The position numbers and the translations under genes are program-made. Positions 36,691 through 62,598 of a stretch of DNA of 64,000 nucleotides are shown piece by piece. A model generated the notes under the pieces. That model did not search any database, was not told the origin of the DNA, and was given only the letters and a program-made list of their open reading frames with translations. Every line of letters starts with the position of its first letter. The first letter of the stretch is position 1. This stretch comes from an uncultured Spirochaetia bacterium (GTDB lineage: Bacteria > Desulfobacterota_D > UBA1144 > Nemesobacterales > CSP1-2): NCBI GenBank assembly GCA_964636885.1, contig CAZWVA010000002.1, forward strand, positions 22,050 through 86,049. Direction: 5' to 3'.

Positions 36691-36969
36691 TTAAAATGCG
36701 CGTAGAAAAGAGACAGGTGTTTGTTTCCGGTGCTTCGTGCTTAGGTATTAAGCATGAGTCATATGGGATTTCAAAAAAAATCGCTCTTTTTTATGTCTTA
36801 GGAGGGTCTTTGGATTGGTATGTTCTTTGCAAACGGGATATGAGGGAAGCGAAATGAAGGAATCGAAAGGCGGTGATTTAATAGATTGCTCTTTATTTGT
36901 TTTTATATTAAGATGGAGGATGCTAAAGCCCGGATTAAGAAATCCCATATAAAAGGAGGTGAAAGAGAG

Positions 36970-37815: not shown

Positions 37816-37842
37816 AAATCCAAAGAAAGGAGGTAATAAAAG

Positions 37843-38334: not shown

Positions 38335-38440
38335 TACTTAAGGATTAGTTTAGATTAACTCCCTGTGGTCTAAAGAAACGGACCGCTTGGTTTAGAGCTG
38401 TCACTGGGATTTCGGATGTACCGATTGCGGTCTTGCGATT

Positions 38441-39619
38441 GTGGGTTTTGACCGGATCTTGGGGATCCGAGATCAGAAGGAGGGGATTATGGATTCAAGG
38501 ACCCTAAAAGTAGAGTTACAGAGTTATGGGCTTAGGATTCCCGATACGAGGGGCATAAGGAGGGGTGGAGCAGGACCTACGGGTGGGATCCATATCAAGA
38601 TCCTTCCCGACAGTGAGGGGAACGTGCCTGTTGTAGGCGATTTCGTTGATTCCTCTCCGTATTATCTGGACCGGATAAACGGTGAATACTGGGTTTTTAA
38701 AAACGACGTTGCCGTAGCTCAGGTAGAGCTCATGGGGGTGGCGAGGTTCTACGACTATAAGACCTCATCCGGGATACCGATGCAAAGGGTCGGACTCCTC
38801 CACTGCCCGACTACATTTGCCACAACGCTCCTTCAAACCTGCGATTTCTGGGAGGACGAGAGGCGTTGCAAGTTTTGCGGGATCGAACTCACGCTTAAGG
38901 ATAGGAGTACAGTAGGATTTAAGAACGCAAAGAGCCTGGTTGAGACCATACTCTGTGCAAAGGAACTAGATGGGATTACGAATATAGTTTTTACCTCCGG
39001 GGTTGCCAAGGACGAGGAAAAGGCACTCTCAAAATACGCCGAGATATGTTCGGAGGTGAAGAGATCGACCGATCTACCGATACAGCTTCAGATAATTCCA
39101 CCCGGGGACCTATCATGGCTTAAGAGGCTGAGGGATGCCGGTGTAGATGCCCTCGGTGTTCACATCGAAACCTTCGATCCAGACGTGTTTGAAAAGATAA
39201 CCCCTGGAAAGGCGAGGATCGGGTTTAATAGGTACGTTGAGACGTGGAAGGAGGCCGTGAACGTCTTTGGGAGGTGGCAGGTTAGTACATACGTGCTTGT
39301 TGGACTCGGGGAGAGACTAGAGACGATAATAGAGGGAACGGCCCTCTGCGCCGACATAGGGGTTTATCCGTTCATCGTTCCGTTTCGACCGATTGCGGGA
39401 ACGCCTATGGAGAATGTAAGGCCACCCGATCCCAAGGTGATGGAGTATGTCTATACAGAGGCCGCAAAGGTGCTTTCAAGGTATGATGGGGGCTCAAAGA
39501 GCAGTAAGGCGGGGTGTGTAAGCTGTGGTGAGTGCTCTGCGCTCCCCGATTTTGAAAGGGCTTTAAATCCCGGTGGGGTGGGATTTAAAAGGTTTGTAAA
39601 ACCGACTAACGTGATCTGA
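38441..39619 (+). CDS. Radical SAM protein with a non-canonical Cys motif (MSMEG_0568 family-like).
   Basis: Cys cluster 'HCPTTFATTLLQTCDFWEDERRCKFCG' (C-x8-C-x2-C rather than CxxxCxxC). TIM-barrel-like rSAM core (GITNIVFTSG; VLVGLGE). C-terminal CxxC. Confidence 0.65.
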   Translation: MGFDRILGIRDQKEGIMDSRTLKVELQSYGLRIPDTRGIRRGGAGPTGGIHIKILPDSEGNVPVVGDFVDSSPYYLDRINGEYWVFKNDVAVAQVELMGVARFYDYKTSSGIPMQRVGLLHCPTTFATTLLQTCDFWEDERRCKFCGIELTLKDRSTVGFKNAKSLVETILCAKELDGITNIVFTSGVAKDEEKALSKYAEICSEVKRSTDLPIQLQIIPPGDLSWLKRLRDAGVDALGVHIETFDPDVFEKITPGKARIGFNRYVETWKEAVNVFGRWQVSTYVLVGLGERLETIIEGTALCADIGVYPFIVPFRPIAGTPMENVRPPDPKVMEYVYTEAAKVLSRYDGGSKSSKAGCVSCGECSALPDFERALNPGGVGFKRFVKPTNVI

Positions 39620-39658
39620 TCTTTTTGGATTTGTATAAATGACTCCCTTCTTCCTCTC

Positions 39659-41071
39659 GTGGAAGTCGGAGGAGGTCTAAGAGGTGATGGTAAGATGACT
39701 CAAAACGATCTACGTATCATCGTGGTAGGAGGGGGTGCTGCTGGGATCTCAGCAGCATCCACGGCAAGGTCCGTAGCCCCTCAGGCCTCGGTTATCCTTT
39801 TTACCGAGTTTGAAGATGTGGCATATAGCCCCTGTGGTATTCCATTCGTTCATGGAAGGGAGATCCCTGATTTTAAGAGCCTTTTTCTTCAAACCCCTGA
39901 GCACTATGCCGAGATCGGAATAGACCTCAGGCTCCAAACAACCGTTACCGGGATAGATCTCGAAAAGCGTACTGTAAGTGTTGGCTCCCAGGTATTTCCC
40001 TGGGACCGTCTTGTTATCGCTACCGGATTCGAGTATGAAAAGCCTGCCATTCCGGGTGTAGACCTAGAGGGGCTTTACTATGTAAAAAACATCCGCCGCG
40101 CAATGGAGTTTGACAAGATACTCGATCAGGTAAAGAGGGTCGTCGTTGTATCGGCAACGCCACTGGGGATCGAGATGACTGGAAACCTCGCCCAGAGGGG
40201 GCTTGAGACGCACCTTGTGGATGAAGGCCCTTGGCTTATGTCAGAGGTTGCCGACCCGGACATAATGCAACCCGTGCAGAAGTCTCTCGAGGAACTTGGG
40301 GCAAGGATCTATCTGGGGACAAAGGTGCTTGAGTTTAAGGGGGAAAACGGAAGGGTAAGATCCATCAGCACCACGGCTGGGGACATAGAATGCGATGTGG
40401 TTGTTATCGCTACTCATAAGAAGCCGAATAACCGTCTTTCCCGCGAGGCGGGGCTAAAGATAGGGGCAACGGGTGGGATAATAGTGGACGACCATATGAG
40501 AACCTCTATGAAGGATGTTTATGCGGCCGGTGACTGCATAGAGGTCATTCACGGTGTGACCGATCTTCCCATTCAGGGGCTTTCCGGGAGTCACGCCTAC
40601 TCTCAGGGAAGGGTGGCGGGGGCCAACGCCGCGGGCGATGACCGGGCCTATGACCCGGTATATGTCCCTTGGGGAATGGTAGGGGGAAGGGTCCAGATCG
40701 GTGGGGTTTCTCTTGGAGAAACCCTGCATAAGGCCCTGGGGATACCACATATAGTAGCCGCCGCGCAGGGGATTTCGAGGGCGAGGTACTATCCTGGGGT
40801 AAGCAGGATCCTAGTAAAACTCATCGCCGACCCGAAAACGCTTCGCGTGATGGGTGCTCAAATGGCGGGTGGCGAGGGGATTAAAGAGAGGGCCGATTTT
40901 CTCGCATTTGCCATAAAGCGCGGGGCTACTCTCGAAGACTTTGCCTGGATGGAAAACGTCTATTCTCCTCCGATCGGGGCATTGATGGAGCCGATTGCCC
41001 TTGCGGCACAGGCTGGATTGGCTGAATTGAAGAAGCGAGGAGCCGAACCCCCCAAATTCGCTGGTGCATGA
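39659..41071 (+). CDS. FAD-dependent pyridine nucleotide-disulfide oxidoreductase (MSMEG_0569 family-like).
   Basis: Dinucleotide-binding motif 'IVVGGGAAGISAAS', a second Rossmann motif (VVVVSATPLGIEM), and 'AAGDCIEV'. Confidence 0.75.
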   Translation: MEVGGGLRGDGKMTQNDLRIIVVGGGAAGISAASTARSVAPQASVILFTEFEDVAYSPCGIPFVHGREIPDFKSLFLQTPEHYAEIGIDLRLQTTVTGIDLEKRTVSVGSQVFPWDRLVIATGFEYEKPAIPGVDLEGLYYVKNIRRAMEFDKILDQVKRVVVVSATPLGIEMTGNLAQRGLETHLVDEGPWLMSEVADPDIMQPVQKSLEELGARIYLGTKVLEFKGENGRVRSISTTAGDIECDVVVIATHKKPNNRLSREAGLKIGATGGIIVDDHMRTSMKDVYAAGDCIEVIHGVTDLPIQGLSGSHAYSQGRVAGANAAGDDRAYDPVYVPWGMVGGRVQIGGVSLGETLHKALGIPHIVAAAQGISRARYYPGVSRILVKLIADPKTLRVMGAQMAGGEGIKERADFLAFAIKRGATLEDFAWMENVYSPPIGALMEPIALAAQAGLAELKKRGAEPPKFAGA

Positions 41072-41085
41072 AAAGGGAAGGCTAA

Positions 41086-41349
41086 ATGTCAGAGAAAAGA
41101 TCATTCGGTGAGTGGTTGAGAAAAAACGCCGAAAAATACCTGCTCGAAGCCGCCGCAGATGAGATGGCAGTCCGTTACCCTGGTCTCTGTGTGAAACCCT
41201 ACAGAGAAAGGGGAATCGTCCCCTTCTTCTGGAGGAGCGTCTTTGTCCCCATTTATTCAAGGATCCCCTGGAGCATCCGCAAGAAGGTGATCCTTTTTAG
41301 CTCCTATCCCACTGGGGAACGCCCCCAGTGGAAGAGGCGGAGTTACTAA
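41086..41349 (+). CDS. Small 87-aa protein, MSMEG_0570 family-like.
   Basis: Size and position (after the flavin oxidoreductase and before the glycosyltransferase) match the small conserved member of the nitrogen-starvation cluster. Confidence 0.45.
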   Translation: MSEKRSFGEWLRKNAEKYLLEAAADEMAVRYPGLCVKPYRERGIVPFFWRSVFVPIYSRIPWSIRKKVILFSSYPTGERPQWKRRSY

Positions 41350-41394
41350 GACACGGGCCTGATTCTGGGATCTAGGGTATCTCCCCTGCCCTCT

Positions 41395-42417
41395 TTGGTT
41401 GTTGGATTTCTTGATATGCTAGTTGTCGCTGAGGCCATAGGTTACAAGGCACTAAAGGCGCTAAGAGGTTCCGGAGGAACGGCCAGGGTGTATAGCGCTT
41501 TTGATCACGCCCTTTATATAAGACCCCGCAGGGGTTCCCTTATAAGTGTGATTAGAGACAGGGACTACATAGGCCCAGCCTCAATATTGCTCAGGGAATC
41601 CAGTTATATGGATTTTAAGTCAATGGGTATTAATGAGGGGACGAGAATAGAGGTTAGAAATGATAGACTGGTCTTTCAGGGTAGTGTACTCACGATTGAG
41701 ATGGGTAGCCCCTCTATCTGGTTCCCTCCTCCCATTCCTCGGCGAAGCGAACTCGTGGGATTGGGGAGCATGAGCCTAAACCTCAGGGTCCTTAGGGATA
41801 TGATATACACCGCCCCGAGCCGGGAAGGGCTGGTTCCGCTCTTAGAGAACGTTGAGCTATACGGGCCCCTTCAGATCTTTCTTAAACCGCAAAAGCCCAC
41901 GCTTTCTGAGAGGACAAGACCCTATATAGAAACGCTCATGTGGGGGCTTTTTTGGGGCGATATCGATGCGATTATAAGTAACGCCCTACAGATACTCGGA
42001 CTCGGCCCTGGGCTTACCCCCTCATGCGATGATTTTCTAACGGGTTTAATCCTCGGTTTAGTCATAGGCGGGAAGGTGCTTCTAAGGGAGAGAAGGAAGG
42101 AGCTTGTTTTTTACAGAAGGGTTTCTTCCGAGATATGCCGGGCGGCGAAGGGTAAAACGACCATATACAGTGAGATCCTTCTAAACCAAGCCCGCCGTGG
42201 CGAAGGGCCTCATGCCCTAATCGGACTCATCCACGCCCTTCTCACAGGGGGACCGGATAGGGTTGCGAGCTTATCAAAGACCGTAATAGCCATGGGAGAG
42301 ACCTCTGGGGCGGATATTTCAATCGGGGTCTACTATGGAATCCGGTTTTTGGTTTCTAGACTAGAAAGGATGGAGGATCTACTCAGTTTAATGGATAGTC
42401 CAGATGGAATCGCTTAA
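41395..42417 (+). CDS. Hypothetical 340-aa protein. It may be a DUF2877 (YlbF/AllH-like) third subunit for FdrA/DUF1116, but this is speculative.
   Basis: TTG start. Soluble protein. The N-terminal region 'SAFDHALYIRPRRGSLISVIRDRDYIGPASILL' is reminiscent of YlbF-family proteins. Overlaps the glycosyltransferase gene by 14 nt. Confidence 0.35.
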   Translation: MVVGFLDMLVVAEAIGYKALKALRGSGGTARVYSAFDHALYIRPRRGSLISVIRDRDYIGPASILLRESSYMDFKSMGINEGTRIEVRNDRLVFQGSVLTIEMGSPSIWFPPPIPRRSELVGLGSMSLNLRVLRDMIYTAPSREGLVPLLENVELYGPLQIFLKPQKPTLSERTRPYIETLMWGLFWGDIDAIISNALQILGLGPGLTPSCDDFLTGLILGLVIGGKVLLRERRKELVFYRRVSSEICRAAKGKTTIYSEILLNQARRGEGPHALIGLIHALLTGGPDRVASLSKTVIAMGETSGADISIGVYYGIRFLVSRLERMEDLLSLMDSPDGIA

Positions 42418-44066: not shown

Positions 44067-45842
44067 ATGAAAAAGAGGAATTTCTCAGATCTTCAGGATT
44101 TCATCGGGTATCTTGAGGCGATAGGGGATCTAAAGAGGATAAAGGCAGAGGTCGACCCCATACTCGAAATCACTGAGATCTCATCAAGGGTGATTAAGGA
44201 AAAGGGTCCGGCACTCCTATTTGAGAACGTAAGGGGCTCCTCATATCCCCTTGCGATTAACCTCTTTGGAACCGAGGAGCGGATGGAGCTTGCCCTTGGT
44301 AGGAAACCGAAAGAGGTGGGAGAAGAGTTGGTTTTCCTATTTGAAAAACTGAATCCCCCTTCTCTGATGTCCTTCTTTTCTATACTCCCCAGGGTATTTG
44401 GGTTCCTCTCCATGAGGACTAAGGATGTGAGAAGCGGGGTGGTTCAAGAGGTAGAGGAGGAGCCAGACCTGGACAGGCTACCCATAATAAAATGCTGGCC
44501 TAAGGATGGCGGCAGGTTCATAACGCTTGGTCTCGTTCTAACCCAGGACCCGGTTACGAGGAGAAGAAACCTTGGGCTCTACAGGATGCAGGTATATGAC
44601 AAGAGGACGACGGGTATGCACTGGCATCCACATAAGGGTGGTGCGGCTCATTACCACGAGGCAGCGAAGCTCGGGATCGACCTTGAGGCCGCAGTCGTTC
44701 TCGGAGGAGACCCAAAGATGATCTTCACAGCCGTTGCCCCGCTTCCCGAAGGCATGGACGAGATCGCCTTCGCGAGCTACCTCCGCGGGAGCCCTATCCC
44801 GATGGTTCGGGGAAAGAGCGTATCCCTTAGTGTCCCTGCAAACGCAGAGTTTGTGATAGAAGGCGTCGTTCCCCAGGGTGAGATAAGGCGTGAGGGTCCA
44901 TTTGGAGACCACTTTGGGCACTACTCGATGGAGGCCGATTTTCCGGTCTTTAGGGTGAGTGAGATAACACACAGGAATAACCCAATTTATCCGGCAACGG
45001 TGGTGGGGAAGCCCCCAAAGGAGGATTTATTCCTTGGGATCGCGGCGGCCGAGATGTTCTCCCCGCTTATAAGGATCATACAACCGGAGGTAAAGGGGAT
45101 GTGGGCATATCCGGAGGCCGGGTTCCACAACCTCCTTGTCGTCTCTGTTGACGAGAGGTATCCAAAGAACGGGATAAAGGCCATGCTCGCCCTCTGGGGT
45201 ACTGGACAGCTTCTCCTTACAAAGTGCATGATAACGGTCTCAAGCGATGTGAACCCGAGGGATTTTAGCGCCGTTCTTAGGGAGATAGGGGAGAACTTTG
45301 ATCCCAGGGAGGACTTTCTCCTCATTCCCTGGGCCCCATTAGATACGCTGGACTTTACGAGCGGGAAGCTGAACGTGGGAAGCAAGATGGGGATTAACGC
45401 CGTAAGGCGCCTAAACGGTTCGGGCAGAAAGCGGGAGGTTCCAAAGAGCGTTCCAGACCCGAGGGAGAAGATAGGAGAGGTTCTAGACCACAGGCTTCTT
45501 CCAGGGGGTTTCCTTGTCTTAAAGGTTAGGAAGAATCCTAAGGACACGATCCGTAGGGTTTTCGATTTGCCGGGATATGGAGACATAAGGATCGTTGCCG
45601 TCGTAAGCCCGGATATTGACATACACGATGACACGGAGCTAATATGGGGTATATTTACGAGGTTTGATCCATATCTCGACGTCGTATTCGAGGAGACGGA
45701 ACTCCGCGGCTCTGCTGTCGTTTACGGTGGGAGGATGGGGATAGATGCCTCTTTTAAGGAGTGGTATCCTGAGGTAATCGAGATGTCGGAAGACGTAAAA
45801 GGGAAGGTGAGAGAGAGATGGAAGGAGTACTGGAGAGAATAG
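44067..45842 (+). CDS. UbiD-family decarboxylase (prenylated-FMN dependent), likely menaquinone/futalosine-pathway associated.
   Basis: 591 aa with the UbiD N-terminus (DLQDFIGYLEAIGDLKRIKAEVDP...LLFENVRGS) and the conserved decarboxylase core. Confidence 0.8.
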   Translation: MKKRNFSDLQDFIGYLEAIGDLKRIKAEVDPILEITEISSRVIKEKGPALLFENVRGSSYPLAINLFGTEERMELALGRKPKEVGEELVFLFEKLNPPSLMSFFSILPRVFGFLSMRTKDVRSGVVQEVEEEPDLDRLPIIKCWPKDGGRFITLGLVLTQDPVTRRRNLGLYRMQVYDKRTTGMHWHPHKGGAAHYHEAAKLGIDLEAAVVLGGDPKMIFTAVAPLPEGMDEIAFASYLRGSPIPMVRGKSVSLSVPANAEFVIEGVVPQGEIRREGPFGDHFGHYSMEADFPVFRVSEITHRNNPIYPATVVGKPPKEDLFLGIAAAEMFSPLIRIIQPEVKGMWAYPEAGFHNLLVVSVDERYPKNGIKAMLALWGTGQLLLTKCMITVSSDVNPRDFSAVLREIGENFDPREDFLLIPWAPLDTLDFTSGKLNVGSKMGINAVRRLNGSGRKREVPKSVPDPREKIGEVLDHRLLPGGFLVLKVRKNPKDTIRRVFDLPGYGDIRIVAVVSPDIDIHDDTELIWGIFTRFDPYLDVVFEETELRGSAVVYGGRMGIDASFKEWYPEVIEMSEDVKGKVRERWKEYWRE

Positions 45843-46927
45843 AGACCCTTTGCAGGGACAGATCCCTTTTAGGGATACTCAAGAAGGTCGAAAGGGGCGA
45901 GAGGATAACCTTTGAAGACGGGCTAAGGATCCTTGAGACCCATGACCTAAACACGGTTGGTATGATGGCCGATTACGTGAAGAGGAAGAGGGAAGGGGAT
46001 AGGGTCTACTTTGTCGTAAATCGCCATGTGAATCCGACAAATATATGCGCTATATCGTGCAAATTCTGTGCCTTCGGGGTGACAAAGAGGTCTCCCGATG
46101 CCTATGAATTAACCCATGAGCAGATACTCTCCATGCTAAGCGAAGAGATAAGGGAGGTTCACATAGTGGGTGGGCTTCATCCAAACTGGGGATTTGATCA
46201 TTATCTGGGCATCGTGAGGCTTATTAAAGAAGCCTACCCAAAGACACACGTAAAGGCGTTTACCGCTGTTGAAGTGGACTGGTTTACGGAGATAAGCGGA
46301 AAGAGCGTAGAAGAGGTACTTCTAGACCTAAAGGAAGCCGGGGTGGATGCACTTACGGGAGGTGGTGCGGAGATCCTTCATCCGGACGTAAGGAAAAAGA
46401 TATGCGCTCCTAAAACGGTTGCAACGAGATGGGAGGAGATACACAAGCTCGCTCACAGGCTAGGCATACCGACAAACGCCACCATTCTCTACGGACACAT
46501 AGAGGAGCCATTTCATGTGGTTGACCATCTTGAAAGGCTAAGAAGGATAGAGGACGAATCGCCGGGGTTCTTTGCGTTCATTCCGGTACTCTTTCAGCCT
46601 GAAAATACAGGGCTCAAGAAACAGGTAAAGTTCGTTCCGGCCTCTTATGATCTAAAGGTGCACGCCCTTGCACGTCTCTATCTCGATAACTTCCCCCACA
46701 TAAAGGCCTACTGGATAACACTCGGCGAAAAACTAGCACAGGTCGCCCTCCACTACGGGGCAAGCGATGCAGATGGAACGATAATGAGGGAAAAAATAAT
46801 CCACGATGCCGGGGCACCGTCCGAGGTCGGCCATAGCAGGGATTTTATGGTCAATATGATAAAGAACGCCGGATACACCCCCGTTGAAAGGGACGCCCTT
46901 TACAATGTGGTCAGGGTTTATTCGTAG
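45818..46927 (+). CDS. Radical SAM enzyme of the MqnC/MqnE family (futalosine pathway).
   Basis: Motif 'CAISCKFCAFG' (CxxxCxxC, MqnC/MqnE-type). 369 aa. A 25-nt overlap with the UbiD gene. Confidence 0.75.
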   Translation: MEGVLERIETLCRDRSLLGILKKVERGERITFEDGLRILETHDLNTVGMMADYVKRKREGDRVYFVVNRHVNPTNICAISCKFCAFGVTKRSPDAYELTHEQILSMLSEEIREVHIVGGLHPNWGFDHYLGIVRLIKEAYPKTHVKAFTAVEVDWFTEISGKSVEEVLLDLKEAGVDALTGGGAEILHPDVRKKICAPKTVATRWEEIHKLAHRLGIPTNATILYGHIEEPFHVVDHLERLRRIEDESPGFFAFIPVLFQPENTGLKKQVKFVPASYDLKVHALARLYLDNFPHIKAYWITLGEKLAQVALHYGASDADGTIMREKIIHDAGAPSEVGHSRDFMVNMIKNAGYTPVERDALYNVVRVYS

Positions 46928-48408: not shown

Positions 48409-49078
48409 TTTCCGCGCTCTTTTTACCGCAATTAAGCAACATATCCAGTGTGGATAGATTGTATATAAAATCCCCCCAGAGCTGAGGATACACGGGAGGA
48501 TGGAAACTGGAAAACTCGATTCGGATTCCCGATTGGCTGAGTAGTGGGAGGTCTAGGTGTTTCTCCACTATCGGAAAGGTCATATAGGTATCGGCCTTCA
48601 GGTGCTTACATGTATTGATGATCAATTCCGTACCCTTTCCCGTGACCCCGAGTTCAGACTGTAGGTAGAGTTTGGTTTTAATAGCAAGGGCATCCCAGAA
48701 GAACCTTATTATACCCATATTGAGTTCGATAAGAAGGCGGTTCCCCTCCCCGTAGATGGATTCCAGGATTGGGAAGTATTCCCTAAGATAAGGGGCGTTG
48801 GCATAGCTTTGACGGATGGTTTGGAGATGCTTTTTTCGCCAGTCCCTTTCATCGCATATCTCGACATTACGGATTATCTGAAGCCCTCGCCTTTTTTTCC
48901 AGACGGGTACTGTGAGCCACAACTCCCCTCTTTCGTTTTTGATGCGGTTTCTATTAACCCAGCCACGGCCCTGAGGGAACTGCACGTCATCGAGTAGAAC
49001 CATGCAGTCGGCCTTCATGGCCTTAAAGAAGAACCCCGGCCAGGGTAGGAAGATGGGCTGGTGTGTGGTGACTATCAT
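48392..49078 (-). CDS. WbqC-like family protein.
   Basis: N-terminus 'TTHQPIFLPWPGFFFKAMKADCMVLLDDVQF', typical of PF08889 WbqC-like proteins. Confidence 0.7.
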   Translation of the reverse strand: MIVTTHQPIFLPWPGFFFKAMKADCMVLLDDVQFPQGRGWVNRNRIKNERGELWLTVPVWKKRRGLQIIRNVEICDERDWRKKHLQTIRQSYANAPYLREYFPILESIYGEGNRLLIELNMGIIRFFWDALAIKTKLYLQSELGVTGKGTELIINTCKHLKADTYMTFPIVEKHLDLPLLSQSGIRIEFSSFHPPVYPQLWGDFIYNLSTLDMLLNCGKKSAEIILSK

Positions 49079-49269
49079 GGTCTACTCTATCGAAGTAGCC
49101 ATTCCTACCTATATTCTATTACAGGAAGTGAATGTATTAAAATGGTGTCTGTAATTCACCCGGCTATTGAATTGGGGATAGGGCTTAAGTATACTGCTTC
49201 ACATTCCGTGAACCATAAAGCGGGTATCCATCCTCCGACGATTAGCGATCATAGAGGACTAGGCATACT

Positions 49270-50034
49270 ATGATAAGCGGATTTGAATTCGCCCTTGTCG
49301 GATTGTCTTCCGTAGCGGCGGGTATCGTGAATGCGCTTGCTGGTGGTGGTACGCTAATCACGTTTCCTACACTTATAGCCGTGGGGGTTCCTGCTGTCGC
49401 CGCAAACATCACAAATACGGTTGCCCTTTGCCCAGGTTACCTGGGGGCTACACTCGCCCAGTCAAACGACCTAAGGGGGCAGAGGGGGCGTCTTTTTCTA
49501 TCCCTTCCGGTCGCCATAATCGGTGGGGTCATAGGGGGTATCCTGCTCCTCAAAACAGGTGAGCGGATTTTTCGCACCCTTGTGCCCTTTCTCATTCTGC
49601 TTGCCTCGGCTCTCATCGCGGTTCAGGACCCACTGCGAGTATGGGTCATTCGCCGCTCCGGACAAATGGGGTCAACGACCGCATCCGAAAGATGGGCGGT
49701 ACTCCCACTCGGTATAGCGGCGATCTATGGGGGCTACTTCGGCGCCGGCCTCAGCGTGATCATGCTCGCTCTGCTTGGACTGATGCTCGAAGACTCCATA
49801 ACCCGGCTCAATGCCCTGAAGCAGACCGTATCGCTCAGCGTTAATGTCGCCGCTGCTGTCTTCTTCGTATTTTCGGGGCAGGTCGTGTGGCTGGCGGCTA
49901 TTGTGATGGCTGTGGGAGCGCTTATAGGAGGGGCACTGGGCGGTCGCCTTGCGGGTCGCATCAAACCGGGTATATTGCGCTGGATCGTGGTGACGATAGG
50001 GGTTGTGGTAGCCCTAATCTACATGGTGCGTTAG
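49270..50034 (+). CDS. TauE/SafE-family (sulfite exporter-like) membrane protein.
   Basis: Seven to eight transmembrane segments with duplicated 'GGGTLITFP' / '[12 protein letters not shown]' motifs. Confidence 0.8.
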
Positions 50035-50226
50035 AGGTGTCGTTATCTCTTTTTGAGACGTATTACGTTTAAATGGGGTTCACTATGAAGGAGGGTTCGC
50101 CCCAGAAATGTAAATAATTGACAAATTTTGTAATGATCGAAATACCTTAAGATAATATAACATATAATAAACACTAAATAAAATAGTTAAAATTTTTGGC
50201 ATGGGGTTTGCCTATCATGGGCACAT

Positions 50227-52059
50227 TTGATAAAAGAAACCCATTGCGCAGCCATGTCTAATGCCGAGGTAGTTGTCCTTGAAAATGAGATCGTTGAAGA
50301 CGGTTTTTATGATCCACTAACCGGATTCCCTAAAAGATCTATATTTTCTGAACACTTAGGGTGTAGTATCGAAAGGAGGAAACAGCACGACGATTATTCG
50401 TTTGCGGTGCTTTATCTCGATCTCGATCAGTTTAAATCCATAAACGATAAGCTTGGGGATAGGGTAAGCGATCTAATTCTAGTCGAGGTTGCCCGTAAGA
50501 TTAAGCGGTGCCTTCGTTCCGAGGACAAGGTTGCACGGGTTGGTCAAGATGAGTTTACGGTTCTACTTGACGACATTAAGGATTTTAGTGATGCGGCGCG
50601 TATAGCCGAGCGGATCCAAAAGTCACTCGAGAATCCCTTTAAGGTGGGTGGTCGTGAGTATCTTATAAGTGTGAGTATAGGCATTGCGATTAGTGAGAAG
50701 GGTCAAGACGATCCTACGGATTTAATACAGAAGGCCGAGATAGCGAAGAACCGCGCTAAATCTCGTGGTAAGGCACGACACGAGATGTTTAATTCCAATA
50801 CTCAAGCGGCTTCTAATGGGCTTATAAGATTGGAGAGTGCGCTCTGGCAGGCGTTGGAGCGTCAGGATTTTAGGGTTTATTATCAGCCTATCGTATCTCT
50901 TGAAACCGGAAGGATTATCGGAGCCGAAGCTCTAGTGCGCTGGCAACATCCGGACCGTGGCCTCCTTCCGCCTTCGGATTTCATCTCACTGGCAGAGGAG
51001 ACCGGATTGATAGTACCCATAAATGAATGGGTATTACGGACTGCCTGTATTCAGAGTAAGGAATGGCAAATCCCCGGTCATCCGCAACTCCATGTTGCGG
51101 TTAATTTTACGGCACGCCAGTTTCAACAGCCCGATCTGACGGGATTAATCAGGAAGGTGCTAAGGGAGACCGATACTCCTCCCCAAGCCCTTGAATTGGA
51201 AATAACCGAGAGTACGGCTATAAAAAACATCAATAACAGCGTTAGATTGCTTAAAGAATTAAGATCTATGGGATTGCAGATCTCCATAGATGATTTTGGT
51301 ACTGGCTACTCTTCGATGAGCTACCTGAAAGACTTTCCGGTTAACACGTTAAAGATCGACCGGTCTTTTGTCAGAGACATAGGGTGCAATGATAACGACC
51401 TAACCCTTATAAAAACGATCATATCTATGGCACACACGCTAAAGTTGAATGTTATAGCGGAGGGTGTAGAAACGGAAGATCAAATCGCCTTCCTGCTCTC
51501 GCATCATTGCGACCGGATCCAGGGGTTTCTGTTCAGCAGGCCTGTCCCCGCTGAGGAGTTTACAAAACTGATTAAGAGGGAGTATAAGCTCTCCTCCGAG
51601 ACACTAAAGAGGGCAAAAGCAGGCTGGAGGAAGAGGTTTTTAGGAGAGTTACTTCTAGAGTCGGGCTTCATAGATTCGGAAAAACTCGGCCGCGCTTTGA
51701 GGGAAAAAAATACCAGCAACGAAAAATTGGGTCAGATCCTCATGAGGTTCGGGTATATAAACGAGGATATCCTTGTAAAGTTTCTGGCAAAACAGCGCGG
51801 TTTTGAAGGTGTTAACCTATTCAAGATAGAAATAGACAAGAGTGTGGTTAATCTGATTCCCAGGGACGTCGCCGAAAAATACAAGGTTCTGCCGATTTGT
51901 TTTAAAATGGAAGGAGGAATGAAAAAGCTAGTTGTGGCTATGGCCAATCCCTCAGACTTGGGAGCGATCGACACTCTGGGATTCATAACCGGTCATGTTA
52001 TAGAACCCGTTTTTGCTAGAGAAGAGCAATTTACATGGATTATAAGGTACTTCTATTAG
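50227..52059 (+). CDS. Tri-domain c-di-GMP protein: GGDEF-like (degenerate GQDEF), EAL, and a C-terminal MshEN (T2SS-E N-terminal-like) c-di-GMP-binding domain.
   Basis: GGDEF region has 'RVGQDEF' in place of RxGGDEF. EAL domain has 'EALVRW', 'DDFGTGYSS' and other catalytic residues. The C-terminal about 130 aa, 'LGELLLESGFIDSEKLGRALREK...LGQILMRFGYINEDILVKFLAKQ', match the MshEN/T2SSE_N fold. Confidence 0.7.
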   Translation: MIKETHCAAMSNAEVVVLENEIVEDGFYDPLTGFPKRSIFSEHLGCSIERRKQHDDYSFAVLYLDLDQFKSINDKLGDRVSDLILVEVARKIKRCLRSEDKVARVGQDEFTVLLDDIKDFSDAARIAERIQKSLENPFKVGGREYLISVSIGIAISEKGQDDPTDLIQKAEIAKNRAKSRGKARHEMFNSNTQAASNGLIRLESALWQALERQDFRVYYQPIVSLETGRIIGAEALVRWQHPDRGLLPPSDFISLAEETGLIVPINEWVLRTACIQSKEWQIPGHPQLHVAVNFTARQFQQPDLTGLIRKVLRETDTPPQALELEITESTAIKNINNSVRLLKELRSMGLQISIDDFGTGYSSMSYLKDFPVNTLKIDRSFVRDIGCNDNDLTLIKTIISMAHTLKLNVIAEGVETEDQIAFLLSHHCDRIQGFLFSRPVPAEEFTKLIKREYKLSSETLKRAKAGWRKRFLGELLLESGFIDSEKLGRALREKNTSNEKLGQILMRFGYINEDILVKFLAKQRGFEGVNLFKIEIDKSVVNLIPRDVAEKYKVLPICFKMEGGMKKLVVAMANPSDLGAIDTLGFITGHVIEPVFAREEQFTWIIRYFY

Positions 52060-52174
52060 GTGTTTTAAGGTTTTAATAAAGCCATCTGATGAAAAACCAA
52101 TAAACTAGGGAAAAGGCAAGCAACAGGGTCGTGCCTCGAATGCATTGATTTTAAGACGAAATGATTGACCCATA

Positions 52175-53686
52175 TCACGCTTCCTTCGAGTAGTATCTGT
52201 ACCAGTCACTCTGGAACCGCCCTTCCGGGTCGTATTTCTCTTTCAACATGAGAAATTCTGCAAACCGCGGATAACAGGATTTGAGTTGCTCTGGGGTTGC
52301 GAACCTGTGGTTCGTGAGGTAATAACTCCCTCCACGTCGAATAGTCATGTCTATGAGTCGACGGAAGGTCTGACGTGAGTGCTCTATCCCTTGGGGGCTG
52401 TGTACGGTGTGTATGTGAAAGCTCACCCGTGCCCAAGGCCGTCTTGCATAGGTCAAGAAACCCTCATCGTCCTGCTCAATTACCCCTATGTCTCCAAAGA
52501 TCAAGTCCACGTTATTTTTAAGGAAATCCTTTCGTACCTCGTCCAAGAAATCCACGAGCGACTCCCGTGGAACGTATACCTCGGTTGGGATATCGGATGC
52601 CTGAGGGCCTCCGAGCATTCGATCGAGTTGGTGGTGGTAACCCTTGAGATAAACGCCCATCTGATGCGTGTCGGACCAATAGAGTCTGCCTGATGTAGAG
52701 AGGTAGTGGTCTCTTATTCTCTGGAAGTAAAGTTCCTTGTCCGCATGGGCCAGGTATCTGAGTTTTATCCACTCCTCATTAGAGGGCTGGTTTGGATAGT
52801 CGGGCACCGATCTTGCCGTATCCACGGGGCGGTGGCAGACGAGGATCCCCTTTCGGAGAAAATCCTCCGATCGGGTGTTGGCGGAGTAGAGAAATGTACC
52901 GTACAAAGAACCATCCGAGACGCGCTTATCAAAGGCCTCTATCAGATCCTCCACGCCTATAACCTCGACGATTCTCTCCACCTTTTGCCGTGGCACCAGG
53001 CGAAGCGTGACGGAGTAGATGACCCCAAACAAACCGTATCCCCCTATGGCGAGCCGAAAGAGTTCGGCGTTTTCCTTTCGACTGCACCTGTGCTCCTTCC
53101 CATCCGCATCAATGATAACAAAGGATTCGATATCCCGGATGATGGGCTTCATCTTTAGTCCCTGGCCGTGTATGTTGGAGGCGAGGCTTCCTCCGATAGA
53201 CAGCCAATCGGCTGACTGTTTTTGGGCGATTCCCCACCTTTTCGCCTCGCCTTCCTGAGCCCCAATTAGATAGCCGATAAGGAGCGGCCACTGGATTCCG
53301 GCTTCGACTTCGATGGTGCCCTCTTTGGGATCGAAACCGATCACACGGCTAAGGGCGGTCATATCGATCAGTACCCCGCCTGTTGCAAACTGCTGTGCCC
53401 CCATGGCATGCCTGGCGCCCGCGATGGAGATCACCTTCCCCTCTCGACCCGCGCTTCTAATGACCTCTCGGATTGCATCTATGGAATCCGGGTAAACGAT
53501 CCGGTCTACGAGGGTTGGGTTGAGTTCCGTATGGACATCGTTTACCAATAGGCCTTTGGTTTCTGTAGTCGTCGCCCTGGGTTTTTCGGTTTGACGTGCA
53601 AAACCGATAGTCCATACCGTAAGCCCGGAGGCTCCCCAAATAGCCCTCAAGAAGTCCCTTCGGTTCAATTCAGCCCTCCGCTTCAT
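52175..53686 (-). CDS. FAD-linked oxidase (PCMH-type FAD-binding, vanillyl-alcohol/gulonolactone oxidase superfamily) with a twin-arginine signal.
   Basis: N-terminus 'NRRDFLRAIWGASGL' (TAT motif). FAD-binding domain (ISIAGARHAMGAQQF). A C-terminal oxidase domain. Confidence 0.7.
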   Translation of the reverse strand: MKRRAELNRRDFLRAIWGASGLTVWTIGFARQTEKPRATTTETKGLLVNDVHTELNPTLVDRIVYPDSIDAIREVIRSAGREGKVISIAGARHAMGAQQFATGGVLIDMTALSRVIGFDPKEGTIEVEAGIQWPLLIGYLIGAQEGEAKRWGIAQKQSADWLSIGGSLASNIHGQGLKMKPIIRDIESFVIIDADGKEHRCSRKENAELFRLAIGGYGLFGVIYSVTLRLVPRQKVERIVEVIGVEDLIEAFDKRVSDGSLYGTFLYSANTRSEDFLRKGILVCHRPVDTARSVPDYPNQPSNEEWIKLRYLAHADKELYFQRIRDHYLSTSGRLYWSDTHQMGVYLKGYHHQLDRMLGGPQASDIPTEVYVPRESLVDFLDEVRKDFLKNNVDLIFGDIGVIEQDDEGFLTYARRPWARVSFHIHTVHSPQGIEHSRQTFRRLIDMTIRRGGSYYLTNHRFATPEQLKSCYPRFAEFLMLKEKYDPEGRFQSDWYRYYSKEA

Positions 53687-58046: not shown

Positions 58047-58460
58047 ATGCAGGTAAGCAAAACTCTGGATTACGCGGTGAGGTCCCTAACCTATATGGGC
58101 AGGTATCCCGTAAAAAGGTTCAGCATGAAAGAGATTTCGGAGAATCAGCATATCCCCTTGAACTACCTGGCCAAGATCATGCGAAGGCTCGTGAATAGGG
58201 GTCTTGTAAGATCAACGGTTGGACCGGACGGTGGTTATGCACTTAGGAAGCCTCCAAGGGAGATAAACCTAAGAGAGGTATACGAGGCCATCGAGGGTGA
58301 ATTCAGAATGATCGAGTGTATGGACAAGGATACGATCTGCGCTCTATACGAGGCTTGTCCTCAGCTTCCCGTCTGGGATAAGATCCAGGTATCTATGATC
58401 AAGATACTTGAAAGCACTACTTTAGAGGATATGTTAAACCGGAATAGGAATGTGACTTAA
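58047..58460 (+). CDS. Rrf2-family transcriptional regulator (IscR/SufR-like, 3-Cys).
   Basis: N-terminal HTH 'LDYAVRSLTYMGRY'. Cys residues at ...ECMDKDTICALYEACP... positioned for an Fe-S cluster. Confidence 0.8.
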   Translation: MQVSKTLDYAVRSLTYMGRYPVKRFSMKEISENQHIPLNYLAKIMRRLVNRGLVRSTVGPDGGYALRKPPREINLREVYEAIEGEFRMIECMDKDTICALYEACPQLPVWDKIQVSMIKILESTTLEDMLNRNRNVT

Positions 58461-58509
58461 GTACATTTAAAGACGGATAACTTAGGAAAGACACTAGAGT
58501 AGGGAGGCC

Positions 58510-59952
58510 GTGAATATGAGCGTTAATTATGATGAGTTGACGAATCGAGAGTACAAATACGGTTTTGTTACGCCGATCGAAGAGGAGATCGCACCTCGCG
58601 GACTGAATGAGGACATCATCCGTTTGATCTCGGCAAAGAAGAACGAGCCGGAGTGGTTGCTAGAATGGCGACTAAGGGCTTACCGGCATTGGATCACCAT
58701 GGAAGAGCCTAAGTGGCAGAACGTACACTATCCGCCCATAGACTATCAGGGCATCAGCTACTATGCGGCGCCAAAGCAGAAGAGTAAACCAAAGAGCATT
58801 GAAGAGATAGACCCAGAAATCCGGGCGACCTATGAAAAACTCGGAATACCTCTGGAAGAGCAGAAGTTGCTTGCAGGGGTTGCCGTGGATGCGGTCTTTG
58901 ATAGCGTCTCTTTGATCACGACATTTAAAGAGAAGCTCGCCGAATTGGGCATCATCTTCTGTTCCATCTCCGAGGCGGTGGCCGAGTATCCTGATCTGGT
59001 TAGAAAGTACCTCGGTTTTGTTGTACCATATAACGACAACTTCTTTGCGGCACTTAACTCTGCGGTATTTACTGATGGGTCTTTCGTGTACGTCCCGAAG
59101 GGGGTTCGCTGTCCCATGGAGTTATCCACATACTTCCGTATCAACGCTGAGAACACGGGGCAGTTTGAACGTACCCTTATAATCGCCGATGAAAGTAGCT
59201 ACGTGAGTTACCTAGAAGGATGCACCGCACCGAAGCGCGACGAGAACCAACTCCACGCTGCTGTAGTAGAGCTTATCGCTCACGACAATGCCACAATCAA
59301 GTACTCCACGATTCAGAACTGGTATCCTGGGGATAAGGACGGTAAGGGTGGTATATACAATTTCGTCACAAAGCGCGGCAGATGCCTGGGTAAGAACTCC
59401 CGCATCTCCTGGACTCAGGTTGAGACCGGTTCGGCTATAACCTGGAAATACCCAAGCTGTATACTGGAGGGTGATAATTCCGTTGGGGAATTCTATTCGG
59501 TGGCACTAACCAATAACCTTCAGCAGGCGGACACTGGTACAAAGATGATACATATAGGCAAGAATACCAGAAGCACAATCGTTTCCAAGGGTATTTCTGC
59601 TGGCTACGGCCAGAATACCTACCGCGGATTGGTCAAGATCGCCAAGAGCGCAAGAGGGGCACGTAACTACACCCAGTGTGATTCCCTTCTTATCGGCGAC
59701 AAGTGTGGTGCTCATACCTTTCCTTACATAGAGGTGAATAACTCAACCGCCCGAATGGAACATGAGGCTACCACATCGAAGATAGGTGAGGATCAGATAT
59801 TCTACTGTCAGCAACGCGGTCTTTCAGCCGAAAACGCGGTCTCTCTAATCGTCAATGGCTTCTGTAAGGAAGTGTTCCGGGAACTACCCTTTGAATTCGC
59901 CGTCGAGGCGGAGAGGCTTCTAAGTATTAGCCTTGAGGGAAGCGTCGGCTGA
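58510..59952 (+). CDS. sufB: Fe-S cluster assembly protein SufB.
   Basis: 480 aa with strong SufB-family similarity throughout (e.g. '[21 protein letters not shown]'). Confidence 0.9.
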
Positions 59953-59984
59953 GGTGTCCAGAAGATCTATCAAGATTAACTCAA

Positions 59985-60782
59985 ATGACCAACTTAGTGG
60001 GAGGAGCTATGCTCGAGATTAAAAACCTACATGTAAGGGTGGACAATCAGGAGATTCTTAAAGGCGTTAACCTGAGGATAGGCGCCGGTGAGGTTCATTC
60101 CATAATGGGCCCAAACGGCTCTGGAAAGAGCACCCTGGCGCAGGTCCTGGCTGGCCGAGAGACATATGAGGTTACGGATGGTGAGGTAATATATCAGGGG
60201 AAAAACCTGCTTGAGATGTCTCCGGAAGAGCGTGCCTGCGAAGGGGTTTTCATGGCCTTTCAGTACCCGGTTGAGATTCCCGGGGTTGCAAATACGTACT
60301 TTCTTAGAGAGGCCCTAAACGCCATCCGAAGGTACCGTGGCCTTGAACCCCTAAAGCACATAGAATTCGTCAAGATGGTAAAGGAAAAGATGAAGCTTCT
60401 GGATATAGACGAAGCCCTACTTCAGCGCTCCGTTAACGAAGGCTTCTCAGGTGGGGAGAAGAAGCGTAACGAGATCTTCCAGATGGTAGTGCTTGAGCCC
60501 AGGCTTTGTATCTTGGATGAGACCGATTCCGGCCTCGACATCGATGCCCTGAGAATCGTCGCCAAGGGCGTTAACTCGATGCGGAGTAAAGAGCGTGGGT
60601 TTCTCGTCATTACCCATTATCAGCGTCTTCTTAACTACATAGTCCCCGATTATGTTCACGTGCTTATCGATGGAAGGATCGTTAGGTCAGGCGGTAAGGA
60701 GTTGGCACTTGAGCTTGAAGAGAAAGGCTATACACGTTGGGTTCAAAGCGAAGCGGAGAGCACCCAAGCAACAAACGCTTAA
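59985..60782 (+). CDS. sufC: Fe-S cluster assembly ATPase SufC.
   Basis: Walker A 'GPNGSGKST', ABC signature 'FSGGEKKR', Walker B 'LCILDETDSGLD'. The start is possibly at MLEIKNL (60009). Confidence 0.9.
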   Translation: MTNLVGGAMLEIKNLHVRVDNQEILKGVNLRIGAGEVHSIMGPNGSGKSTLAQVLAGRETYEVTDGEVIYQGKNLLEMSPEERACEGVFMAFQYPVEIPGVANTYFLREALNAIRRYRGLEPLKHIEFVKMVKEKMKLLDIDEALLQRSVNEGFSGGEKKRNEIFQMVVLEPRLCILDETDSGLDIDALRIVAKGVNSMRSKERGFLVITHYQRLLNYIVPDYVHVLIDGRIVRSGGKELALELEEKGYTRWVQSEAESTQATNA

Positions 60783-60797
60783 CGAGGGGAGAGGGCT

Positions 60798-62141
60798 ATG
60801 GAAACCATTAGCATGAGAGAAAAACAGGGTTACTTGGAGGGCTTTTCACTCTTCGAGAAAGACGCCCCGGGAAACGACCTAGCGTGGCTGCGGGAGGTTC
60901 GACAGGAGGCGATCTCCTGCTTCTCTGAGATCGGATTTCCAACCCCTAGGGACGAGGATTGGCGTTTTACCAACCTGGCTCCGATTACCCGAACCCCCTT
61001 CCAGATAGCGAGAAACAACGGGGGAGGGTTATCGTTCAAAGAGATTGAGCCGTTTATGATTCCGGGACCTACCTCTGACCTGCTTGTGTTTGTAAACGGT
61101 CGGTATCTAACGGGGGTTTCTTCATCGGGATCGCTTCCTGGTGGCATAAAGGTCATTAACCTTACCCAGGCCCTTAAGGAAGAGAGGGAGATACTAGAGC
61201 TGCACCTCTCACGGTACTCGGATTATAGGAAGGACCCTTTTTCGGCCCTTAATACCGCCTTCATGGAAGACGGCTCCCTTGTCTATATCCCAAGTGGTAC
61301 GGTTCTCGAAGAACCGATTCACCTTCTCTACATATCGGTCACGACCGATGGTCCTATAGTAGTCCATCCCCGTAACTTGATTGTAATGGGGGATAACAGC
61401 CAGGCGACCATCGTAGAGCAATACGCCTCGATTAGTGAGAACGTCTATTTCTCCAATGTGGTTACAGAGGCCGTGGTTGGAAAAAACAGCGTTCTTAATC
61501 ACTTCATGATCGAGCGTGAGAGCAAGAGGGCTTTTAACATCTCAACCCTTCGGGTCCAGCAGGACCGAAGCAGTAGCGTCACCTCCAATTCCATATTACT
61601 AGGAGGCGCCTTGGTACGGAATAACGTTCACCCGGTTCTGGCCGGTGAGGGCTCCGAATGCTATATAAACGGCCTTTTCATGTCAACCGGAAGACAACAT
61701 ATGGATAACTACATGAAGGTTGAGCACGCAAGCCCACACTGCGATAGCCGCCAGCTATATAAGGGTGTTCTCGACGGCAGGTCACACGGGGTTTTCCACG
61801 GTCGAATCATCGTGCATAAAGGCGCTCAAAAGACAGACGCCAAGCAGACCAATAGGAACCTTCTGCTTTCGGACGAAGCCCAGATTGATACAAAGCCCCA
61901 GCTTGAGATCTATGCTGATGATGTAAAGTGCACACACGGGGCTACCATAGGCCAGCTCGACGAAAACGCCATCTTCTACCTGCGTTCACGAGGGATCCCC
62001 CTCGATTCGGCGCGCTCTCTTCTCCTTTTTGCCTTTACGAGCGAGATAATAGAGCGCATTAAGGAAGAACCGATACGTAGGTATCTAGAGACCCTGGTTA
62101 CGGACTGGTTTATTCAGGGAAAACTCATTGAGAGGGCGTAG
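60798..62141 (+). CDS. sufD: Fe-S cluster assembly protein SufD.
   Basis: SufBD-family C-terminal beta-helix. Lies between sufC and sufU. Confidence 0.85.
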   Translation: METISMREKQGYLEGFSLFEKDAPGNDLAWLREVRQEAISCFSEIGFPTPRDEDWRFTNLAPITRTPFQIARNNGGGLSFKEIEPFMIPGPTSDLLVFVNGRYLTGVSSSGSLPGGIKVINLTQALKEEREILELHLSRYSDYRKDPFSALNTAFMEDGSLVYIPSGTVLEEPIHLLYISVTTDGPIVVHPRNLIVMGDNSQATIVEQYASISENVYFSNVVTEAVVGKNSVLNHFMIERESKRAFNISTLRVQQDRSSSVTSNSILLGGALVRNNVHPVLAGEGSECYINGLFMSTGRQHMDNYMKVEHASPHCDSRQLYKGVLDGRSHGVFHGRIIVHKGAQKTDAKQTNRNLLLSDEAQIDTKPQLEIYADDVKCTHGATIGQLDENAIFYLRSRGIPLDSARSLLLFAFTSEIIERIKEEPIRRYLETLVTDWFIQGKLIERA

Positions 62142-62208
62142 TGATGGAAGGGAGGATCGACATAATGGTCCGTGGGCTGACACATAGAACCGACTTAGAG
62201 GGGCTTAG

Positions 62209-62598
62209 ATGAGTTTAGACCAAATGGAGTACATCCTCGACCATTATAAGAACCCGAGGAACTATGGGACGCTTCCGGAACCGGATATATCACATGAGGA
62301 GGGAAACCCCTCCTGTGGAGATGTTATAAGGATCGACCTAAGAGTTAGGGATAACAGGGTGGTTGAGGCGAGGTTCTCCGGAAAGGGGTGCGCAATAAGT
62401 CAGGCCGCGGCTTCTATTCTGACCGAGATGATAGTCGATAAGAGCCTAGACGAGATAAAGGCCATAACCAAGGATGATATGCTGAGCGCTTTGGGAATAA
62501 CGATAAGTCCAATAAGGTTTAAGTGCGCCACTTTGGCCCTAAAGGTTTTAAAATCCGGTCTCTATGGGATAAAAATATGGCCTGGGGAGGAGAAGTGA
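62209..62598 (+). CDS. sufU: SufU/IscU-like Fe-S scaffold (NifU N-terminal domain type).
   Basis: Three conserved Cys residues (NPSCGD; GKGCAIS; RFKCATLA). Confidence 0.8.
   Translation: MSLDQMEYILDHYKNPRNYGTLPEPDISHEEGNPSCGDVIRIDLRVRDNRVVEARFSGKGCAISQAAASILTEMIVDKSLDEIKAITKDDMLSALGITISPIRFKCATLALKVLKSGLYGIKIWPGEEK

Follow-up and report, generated by a model that had tools for sequence, protein, structure and literature searches.

A three-domain GGDEF-EAL-MshEN protein

The 64,000-nucleotide stretch analysed here (hereafter the window; positions 22,050 to 86,049 of contig CAZWVA010000002.1, assembly GCA_964636885.1) comes from an uncultured Spirochaetia bacterium placed by GTDB in Desulfobacterota_D, and carries on its forward strand a gene for a protein in which a GGDEF domain is followed by an EAL domain and a C-terminal MshEN domain. 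Pfam recognises each of the three above its curated threshold (Table 1). We consider it moderately likely that this protein is an EAL phosphodiesterase which is regulated or positioned by cyclic di-GMP (c-di-GMP) through an MshEN domain of its own.

Public gene calls on identical contigs start the gene at the ATG at 50254, which yields a protein of 601 aa and is probably the true start; Table 1 gives the longer reading frame. Because only ~26 residues precede the GGDEF domain, the protein has no N-terminal sensor, as the initial annotation of the window had proposed. Matches to the NCBIfam models of phosphodiesterase equivalogs (e.g. DibA) were sub-threshold only, so that the protein falls, on these scores, into no named orthologue group; scores with the LapD and CsrD models were far under the cut-offs. 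The T2SSE ATPase domain is absent from the protein in the Pfam scan and the polypeptide stops at the MshEN domain. The protein thus does not look like a secretion ATPase of the PilB/MshE/GspE type, in which T2SSE with its Walker A motif follows MshEN.

Independent samples (JGI, ENA, Logan and NCBI) yielded at least seven distinct sequences with the same three domains. The seven members considered below are the window protein, P0002 (85% identical to it), P0003 (81%), P0004 (60%), P0005 (61%), a tandem paralogue of the latter at locus L004 (55%) and P0148 (43–44%); P0005 comes from a Thermodesulfobacteriota metagenome-assembled genome and P0148 represents a cluster of 22 sequences. Because independent samples show the same fusion, with a conserved linker between EAL and MshEN (L455 and S456 invariant, W467 present in six of the seven), and because all parts of the protein evolve with a ratio of nonsynonymous to synonymous substitutions (dN/dS) well below 1, an assembly or frameshift artefact can be excluded.

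The EAL domain is predicted to be catalytic, whereas the GGDEF signature is degenerate

The EAL hidden Markov model (HMM) matched over its full length (positions 3–236 of 236; 256.5 bits, E = 2.7e-76). The metal-binding and catalytic residues of EAL domains comprise the Glu of the EAL motif, an Asn, the ExxE motif, the Asp pair and Lys that follow, the Glu of EGVE and a Gln, with loop 6 reading DFG(T/A)GYSS. The window protein has all of them, including N293, and the EAL, N, ExxE, DDFGTGYSS, KxD, EGVE and QG elements are invariant in 7/7 members. The EAL domain is therefore the predicted catalyst of c-di-GMP cleavage, and the earlier statement that it keeps its catalytic motifs holds for the whole family. 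With these motifs intact, the protein does not resemble a receptor of the FimX/LapD type, in which the EAL domain is degenerate.

The signature of the GGDEF domain, read again from the sequence as R-V-G-Q-D-E-F, is not intact, and the window protein does not qualify as an active diguanylate cyclase by the GG(D/E)EF motif. The second Gly, replaced here by Gln, is also the residue changed in Caulobacter CC3396 (GEDEF), a cyclase-inactive protein in which the domain serves as a GTP sensor activating its EAL domain. The motif 'GQDEF' itself was found in no searchable paper. Across the family the signatures read GQDEF, GQDEF, GQDQF, GGDQF, EGDEF, GGDEF (the L004 paralogue) and SGFEF, so that the L004 paralogue alone has an intact motif and six of the seven members depart from it; in P0148 the Asp of the Mg site and the Asn that contacts guanine are gone as well. 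This variation among relatives points to relaxed constraint on the cyclase active site, which has decayed in different ways across the family, and it supports the initial description of the domain as degenerate and likely cyclase-inactive. By-eye comparison with the consensus shows that the window GGDEF domain keeps DLDQFKSIND...D and RAKSRGK. The RxxD motif of the inhibitory site (I-site) precedes the signature in the order RSED, KVARV, GQDEF, and RSxD upstream of the signature is invariant in 7/7 members.

The C-terminal region has the sequence and predicted fold of an MshEN domain

A complete MshEN domain of two subdomains occupies residues 471–610. Pfam MshEN (PF05157) scored 57.2 bits over residues 527–610 (gathering score 23.1; E = 1.7e-15), and the last 139 aa matched N-domains of PilF, PilB and MshE among Protein Data Bank (PDB) entries with E values from 1.6e-31 to 1.4e-11, the latter for MshE (5HTL). 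An AlphaFold2 model of residues 461–610, built from an 18-sequence alignment, had a mean predicted local distance difference test score (pLDDT) of 91.9 and consisted of a four-helix bundle followed by an alpha/beta subdomain, the latter with pLDDT above 90. The top Foldseek matches to this model were c-di-GMP-bound MshE (5HTL), GSPII-B of PilF (8PDK) and its mutants, and 9GL5, with template modelling (TM) scores of 0.6–0.68 for 5HTL and 8PDK; a further match was 7LKM, the N-domain of Xanthomonas citri PilB bound to PilZ. Judged by HMM, by sequence match to solved structures and by predicted fold, the domain is a true MshEN domain, and the initial assignment of the C-terminus to the MshEN/T2SS-E N-domain family is borne out.

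The MshEN signature consists of two 24-residue motifs separated by five residues, with the strict consensus RLGxx(L/V/I)(L/V/I)xxG(L/V/I)(L/V/I)xxxxLxxxLxxQ (PMC5013675). In the window protein the tandem arrangement and the spacer length are exact, and family members share them. G473, G480, G502, G509, L472, L487, L491, L501, L516, L520 and Q523 are kept in all members. Hence, when the motifs are held against the published consensus, the Gly/Leu core and the spacer agree with it but the strict pattern fits neither motif: motif I deviates at position 1 (F471) and position 24 (K494), motif II at positions 1 (K500), 7 (M506) and 11 (Y510), and only the latter motif passes a relaxed published pattern.

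Because the strict consensus is missed, we regard c-di-GMP binding by this MshEN domain as no more than probable. The deviations are not read as degeneracy, for three reasons. The Gly and Leu residues dominate binding: in MshE, Wang et al. found that these matter most, that a single Leu change costs more than 10-fold in affinity and that Gly-to-bulky variants bind poorly or not at all, while changes of Arg9 and Gln32 shift affinity less than 5-fold. In the seven members Gly at position 3 and Leu at positions 2, 17 and 21 of both motifs are invariant. Changes at position 1 are tolerated by PilF, whose GSPII-B domain has Lys and Leu at the two first positions and a Kd of 6 nM, the K167L variant binding at 2 nM; Neissner et al. 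relaxed the consensus at this place to (R/K/L) and suggested that very high affinity can be predicted from a hydrophobic first residue (PMC11731258). Finally, none of the substitutions found in the non-binder XpsE (G11V, I19R, L29R, R38G, G40L, L54H, L58C and Q61V) is present in the window MshEN.

A proposed substrate-sensing phosphodiesterase and its alternatives

Taken together, these features suggest a soluble, sensor-less phosphodiesterase whose EAL domain would cleave c-di-GMP. The GGDEF domain would no longer make c-di-GMP and may have been retained as a regulatory module, its RxxD site for c-di-GMP being conserved and, in the window protein, the residues that contact GTP apparently being retained as well, and the MshEN domain would most likely still bind monomeric c-di-GMP tightly in its four-helix bundle. 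As the protein has no other input domain, c-di-GMP itself is the most likely cue. Picked up by MshEN, and perhaps by the RxxD site as well, it would set the activity or the position of its own destroyer, and the result would be a substrate-sensing set-point or a feed-forward device acting in cis, for which NfrB may serve as a model. The functional logic could thus be substrate-sensing feedback, localisation or both; that MshEN is coupled to EAL activity in particular we put forward tentatively. The initial annotation had offered feedback by product or by substrate. MshEN binds c-di-GMP, the substrate of the EAL domain, and to our knowledge is not known to bind its product pGpG, so that substrate feedback is the sensible form of that idea.

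Several observations weigh against this reading. Motif I fails every published pattern, solely through the Phe at its position 1. K494 stands where motif I has a Gln that bonds phosphate and ribose, and in PilF affinity falls to about 500 nM with Q190E. The Asp through which the C-subdomain contacts guanine (D108 in MshE, D266 in PilF), a contact that is dispensable in MshE and worth ~9-fold in PilF, appears by position to be an Asn here (N574, in ANPS). The helical linker runs on into helix alpha1 of MshEN, and in GSPII-A of PilF the binding site is blocked by an alpha1 helix that is extended and capped. A full-length AlphaFold2 model (5-sequence alignment) was discarded (pLDDT 62.6, predicted TM score 0.39), being too poor to show any contact between MshEN and EAL. 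A last point comes from selection acting on the C-subdomain.

For each domain, dN/dS was calculated by the Nei-Gojobori method for the two closest pairs with DNA sequence available, window protein versus P0002 (synonymous divergence, dS, ~1–1.6, near saturation) and P0005 versus P0004 (dS ~0.33). The respective values were 0.052 and 0.117 for EAL, 0.063 and 0.266 for the MshEN N-subdomain, and 0.040 and 0.083 for the MshEN C-subdomain. For GGDEF the second pair gave 0.205, while in the first, with dS saturated, dN was 0.100, about twice the EAL value. No domain is decaying, and purifying selection acts on all of them (dN/dS <0.3). Constraint is strongest on the MshEN C-subdomain, with the lowest ratio in both pairs, although in MshE this subdomain is not required for ligand binding; its constraint therefore suggests an extra or alternative role in docking to a partner.

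Such a role leads to the alternative that MshEN, chiefly its ND1-like C-subdomain, serves mainly for protein-protein interaction. Through a PilM/GspL-like or PilZ-like partner it would anchor the phosphodiesterase at a type IV pilus or type II secretion platform, or else compete with PilB for that partner, and so create a local c-di-GMP sink at the machine. Any binding of c-di-GMP would, in this model, gate docking and not catalysis. PilZ and, by homology, PilM/GspL/EpsL bind to PilB/GspE on the surface of the equivalent ND1 subdomain, a complex of this kind (7LKM) is among the structural matches, and besides stand-alone MshEN proteins the nearest kin of the domain, among the matches listed, are N-domains of PilB-type ATPases. 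Neither the 64-kb window nor five related loci contain pilus or secretion genes, however, and the conserved core of the c-di-GMP motifs is not something that docking alone would require. We consider docking as the chief role rather unlikely; it is compatible with regulation by c-di-GMP and may coexist with it.

According to another alternative, the MshEN domain has lost nucleotide binding and is a structural or oligomerisation appendage to a phosphodiesterase that is constitutive or regulated by GTP. There are precedents in XpsE, in PilF GSPII-A and in the PilB proteins of Xanthomonas and Pseudomonas, many MshEN domains being known non-binders, and the five departures from the strict consensus, together with the Asn at the probable Asp108 equivalent, are what such a history might leave. 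The Gly/Leu core, the five-residue spacer and Q523 are nevertheless conserved across relatives 44–85% identical, no substitution of the XpsE kind is present, a Lys or a hydrophobic residue at position 1 raises affinity in PilF, and the N-subdomain is under purifying selection, all of which makes this alternative improbable.

We give equally little credence to the possibility that the protein belongs to a make-and-break module or is a trigger enzyme, as part of an ancestral pair in which MshEN reports the c-di-GMP made by a partner or touches that partner. The candidate is a GGDEF-HD-GYP protein, a probable cyclase with a non-canonical HD-GYP domain, whose gene lies on the same strand 87–138 bp downstream in three of five independent contexts (L003, L004 and L087), and these three span the deepest split in the family. 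The neighbour keeps R[LI]GGDEF, RxxD and HHE..GYP, while the His of its HD dyad is replaced, the dyad reading YD, SD and YD. The two genes may constitute a conserved cyclase/phosphodiesterase pair. The partner gene is, however, absent from the 64-kb window and from locus L088, no other GGDEF, EAL, HD-GYP or MshEN gene being found in the window, so that the window copy would be an orphan that has lost its linkage, the partner perhaps having been lost or having moved elsewhere in the genome of this organism. Moreover, adjacency is not proof of interaction, and nothing ties MshEN specifically to the neighbour.

Genomic neighbourhood

The window copy stands alone. Upstream of it, on mixed strands, are genes for UbiD, a radical SAM protein, carbonic anhydrase, WbqC and TauE, and downstream lies a convergent gene for a FAD-binding oxidase. 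The intergenic region that precedes the gene (50035–50226, ~190 bp) is very AT-rich; promoter-like matches upstream of the gene, like promoter and terminator matches around it, are at chance level, and no obvious Shine-Dalgarno sequence precedes either candidate start. No Rfam element or riboswitch was found in window positions 49000–53000.

Other parts of the window carry further gene groups. At 400–2883 lie a gene for a calcineurin-like metallophosphoesterase and, after it, one for a bacterial dynamin-like GTPase (587 aa). A cluster at 32786–42417 encodes AllG, an FdrA-like CoA-ligase-domain protein, a carbamate/amino-acid kinase, an amidohydrolase, a radical SAM protein, a pyridine-nucleotide disulfide oxidoreductase and an AllH-domain protein, and looks like an oxamate carbamoyltransferase-type (allantoin/oxalurate) pathway plus some additional genes. 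At 44067–46927 there is an overlap between genes for a UbiD-family decarboxylase and a CofH/MqnC-like radical SAM protein, maybe as a pair for quinone or cofactor biosynthesis, and at 58047–62598 an Rrf2-family regulator gene is followed by those for SufB, SufC, SufD and a NifU-like scaffold, an ordinary Fe-S assembly operon.

Table 1. Features of the GGDEF-EAL-MshEN gene (window coordinates) and of the GGDEF-HD-GYP genes found downstream of its relatives (locus coordinates)
Feature	Position	Strand	Remarks
Whole coding sequence	50227..52059	+	610 aa from TTG, stop codon included
GGDEF domain, residues 27-183	50305..50775	+	Pfam PF00990, E 1e-41; cyclase site degenerate
RxxD inhibitory-site motif, R97-S-E-D100	50515..50526	+	five residues upstream of GQDEF
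Degenerate GGDEF signature GQDEF, G106-F110	50542..50556	+	read as R104-V-G106-Q-D-E-F110
EAL phosphodiesterase domain, residues 205-439	50839..51543	+	Pfam PF00563
EAL motif	50926-50934	+	catalytic motif
EITE (E325..E328)	51199-51210	+	EAL catalytic motif
DDFGTGYSS	51289-51315	+	EAL catalytic motif, loop 6
KID	51352-51360	+	EAL catalytic motif
EGVE	51460-51471	+	EAL catalytic motif
QG	51520-51525	+	EAL catalytic motif
Helical basic linker between EAL and MshEN, residues 440-470	51544..51636	+	...KRAKAGWRKR
MshEN motif I, FLGELLLESGFIDSEKLGRALREK, residues 471-494	51637..51708	+	consensus in PMC5013675, PMC11731258
Spacer NTSNE between the motifs	51709..51723	+	five residues; spacer length as in PMC5013675
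MshEN motif II, KLGQILMRFGYINEDILVKFLAKQ, residues 500-523	51724..51795	+	KLG...[KR]Q invariant in the family
MshEN C-subdomain, ND1-like alpha/beta fold, residues 524-610	51796..52056	+	Pfam PF05157 at 527-610
GGDEF-HD-GYP genes	L003:9900-11555; L004:12400-14052; L087:2322-3467		

Distribution and origin of the fusion

Residues 441–610 were compared by exhaustive HMMER search with 1.84 billion representatives clustered at 50% identity. The search yielded 15,373 relatives, and among the best 150 of them GGDEF and EAL domains were also present in P0002 and P0148 only. A word-indexed search with the MshEN region alone scored 99 candidates and missed P0001–P0005, and a profile search missed P0148 and the L004 paralogue, though both were in the query. 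Because known members escaped such word-indexed searches, the counts for the family (at least seven sequences, falling into two 50%-identity clusters) are lower bounds. Among 160 related loci listed from GTDB genomes and metagenomes, no fused GGDEF or EAL domain was seen except on the P0148 contig; these scans, in which the contig of the window was not recovered, show the nearest MshEN relatives among the matches listed, not absence.

Within the best 150 HMMER matches and the loci listed, the family is most closely approached by stand-alone MshEN proteins of ~150 aa that are 44–60% identical to the query domain and share the idiosyncratic C-subdomain features of the family (P0121–P0123; L007:6001-6441, from 'Bacterium HR37'; and proteins at L089, L091 and L092). 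P0121 is truly a solitary gene; its neighbour, transcribed divergently, codes for a Ser/Thr kinase. Among the loci listed these are followed, at 36–48% identity, by PilB-type ATPases with an N-terminal MshEN domain and a Walker A motif from deltaproteobacterial-type lineages, and Walker A is present in most of the related loci listed. That stand-alone proteins are the nearest kin suggests a history of gene fusion or fission, in which the MshEN domain may have been recruited from a pool of stand-alone MshEN proteins and N-domains of PilB pilus ATPases.

Two members of the family contain internal duplications. The tandem paralogue next to P0005 (L004:10396-12261) has the same three domains but keeps GGDEF intact, and its motif I is a canonical RLG...Q; a 9-residue duplication (DTVARLGKD / DTVARLGGD) shifts its RSTD off the usual five-residue I-site spacing. 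In P0004 (L088:83-1993) a tandem duplication of ~20 residues (…LEEELQDSGLEDVIALEEELQDSGL…) lies in an acidic N-terminal segment before GGDEF. One further candidate, a GGDEF-MshEN fusion at L130:22-3275, was rejected: a stop codon parts a REC-GGDEF gene from a separate MshEN gene in the same frame. The gene row there consists of a hybrid histidine kinase/REC gene, the REC-GGDEF cyclase gene and the MshEN-containing gene.

The 2016 catalogue of MshEN architectures contains fusions to T2SSE, REC, GAF, HD-GYP, CheA, CheX, adenylate cyclase, protein kinase, glycosyltransferase and other domains, and none to GGDEF or EAL. A full-text literature search for MshEN with EAL or GGDEF-EAL likewise found such a fusion nowhere described. 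As far as these sequences go, the architecture is rare, is built from well-known parts and belongs to a small clade of uncultured bacteria only.

Relation to known systems

The closest domain combination is the MshEN-HD-GYP-REC-DUF4388 type represented by MXAN_2809 of Myxococcales (Wang et al. 2016, Suppl. Table 4), which likewise joins a c-di-GMP phosphodiesterase and an MshEN domain in one polypeptide. It differs in that an HD-GYP domain takes the place of EAL, MshEN stands at the N-terminus and REC and DUF4388 occur in addition, and it is known by its architecture only. With Vibrio cholerae MshE (5HTL) and Thermus thermophilus PilF GSPII-B (8PDK) the window MshEN shares the two-subdomain fold, the tandem 24-residue motifs and the five-residue spacer. 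Like those of PilF GSPII-B, which start with Lys and Leu, its motifs begin with residues other than Arg, namely Phe and Lys. Unlike in MshE and PilF, where the domain is N-terminal to the T2SSE ATPase, it is here C-terminal to GGDEF-EAL with no ATPase, and it differs from both in the Phe at position 1 and the Lys at position 24 of motif I and in the probable Asn in place of Asp108.

Escherichia coli NfrB is the best-characterised precedent for regulation in cis by MshEN: there a C-terminal MshEN domain sits behind a catalytic (GT2) domain, and binding of c-di-GMP allosterically activates the enzyme. The output of NfrB is, however, that of a membrane glycosyltransferase which does not consume the ligand, and its MshEN motif is fully canonical. 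The combination of a GGDEF domain degenerate at the second Gly with an active EAL domain recalls C. crescentus CC3396/PdeA, which differs in having an N-terminal PAS domain and no MshEN; in addition, the P0148 subfamily has lost residues of the GTP site that acts as sensor in the Caulobacter protein. Fusions of PilZ to GGDEF, EAL and HD-GYP, as summarised from Amikam and Galperin (2006) in 10.1101/814665, follow the same principle of a turnover enzyme with a dedicated receptor, although the PilZ beta-barrel and the MshEN helical bundle differ in binding mode and stoichiometry.

The FimX-PilZ-PilB system of X. citri also links a GGDEF-EAL protein to a PilB N-domain (ND0/ND1), which is MshEN-like. 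In that circuit the link is non-covalent and runs through the PilZ adaptor, the EAL domain of FimX is a degenerate receptor and ND0 of PilB does not bind c-di-GMP, whereas the window protein has an apparently catalytic EAL domain and owes the link to a gene fusion. At the far, very improbable end of our expectations, the protein would be a self-contained set-point device with three sites for c-di-GMP (EAL, RxxD and a nanomolar MshEN) whose PilB-derived, c-di-GMP-loaded MshEN/ND1 docks on the pilus platform in the place of PilB. If that were true, one ligand would both stop pilus assembly and bring about its own breakdown on the spot, which would make the protein the covalent equivalent of the FimX-PilZ-PilB circuit.

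The fusion is thus real and rare, and will not greatly surprise the specialist. The design principle is not new, because MshEN-HD-GYP and PilZ-GGDEF/EAL/HD-GYP fusions are known and GGDEF I-sites routinely give feedback. With its pieces known, its clade small and uncultured, and like fusions (MshEN-HD-GYP, PilZ-EAL) already catalogued, the advance is an incremental one. What the protein adds is an extension of MshEN architectures to the EAL/GGDEF enzymes themselves, and its natural Phe at motif position 1 bears on the proposed rule that relates a hydrophobic residue there to tight binding. The MshEN-HD-GYP and PilZ-EAL fusions show that c-di-GMP receptor domains recur on c-di-GMP enzymes. The protein touches on the questions of what controls single c-di-GMP enzymes and what keeps their signalling local. 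If the favoured reading is true, the family would be a compact natural case of substrate-sensing feedback or receptor-guided localisation, in which the only apparent input of an enzyme is a high-affinity receptor for its own substrate.

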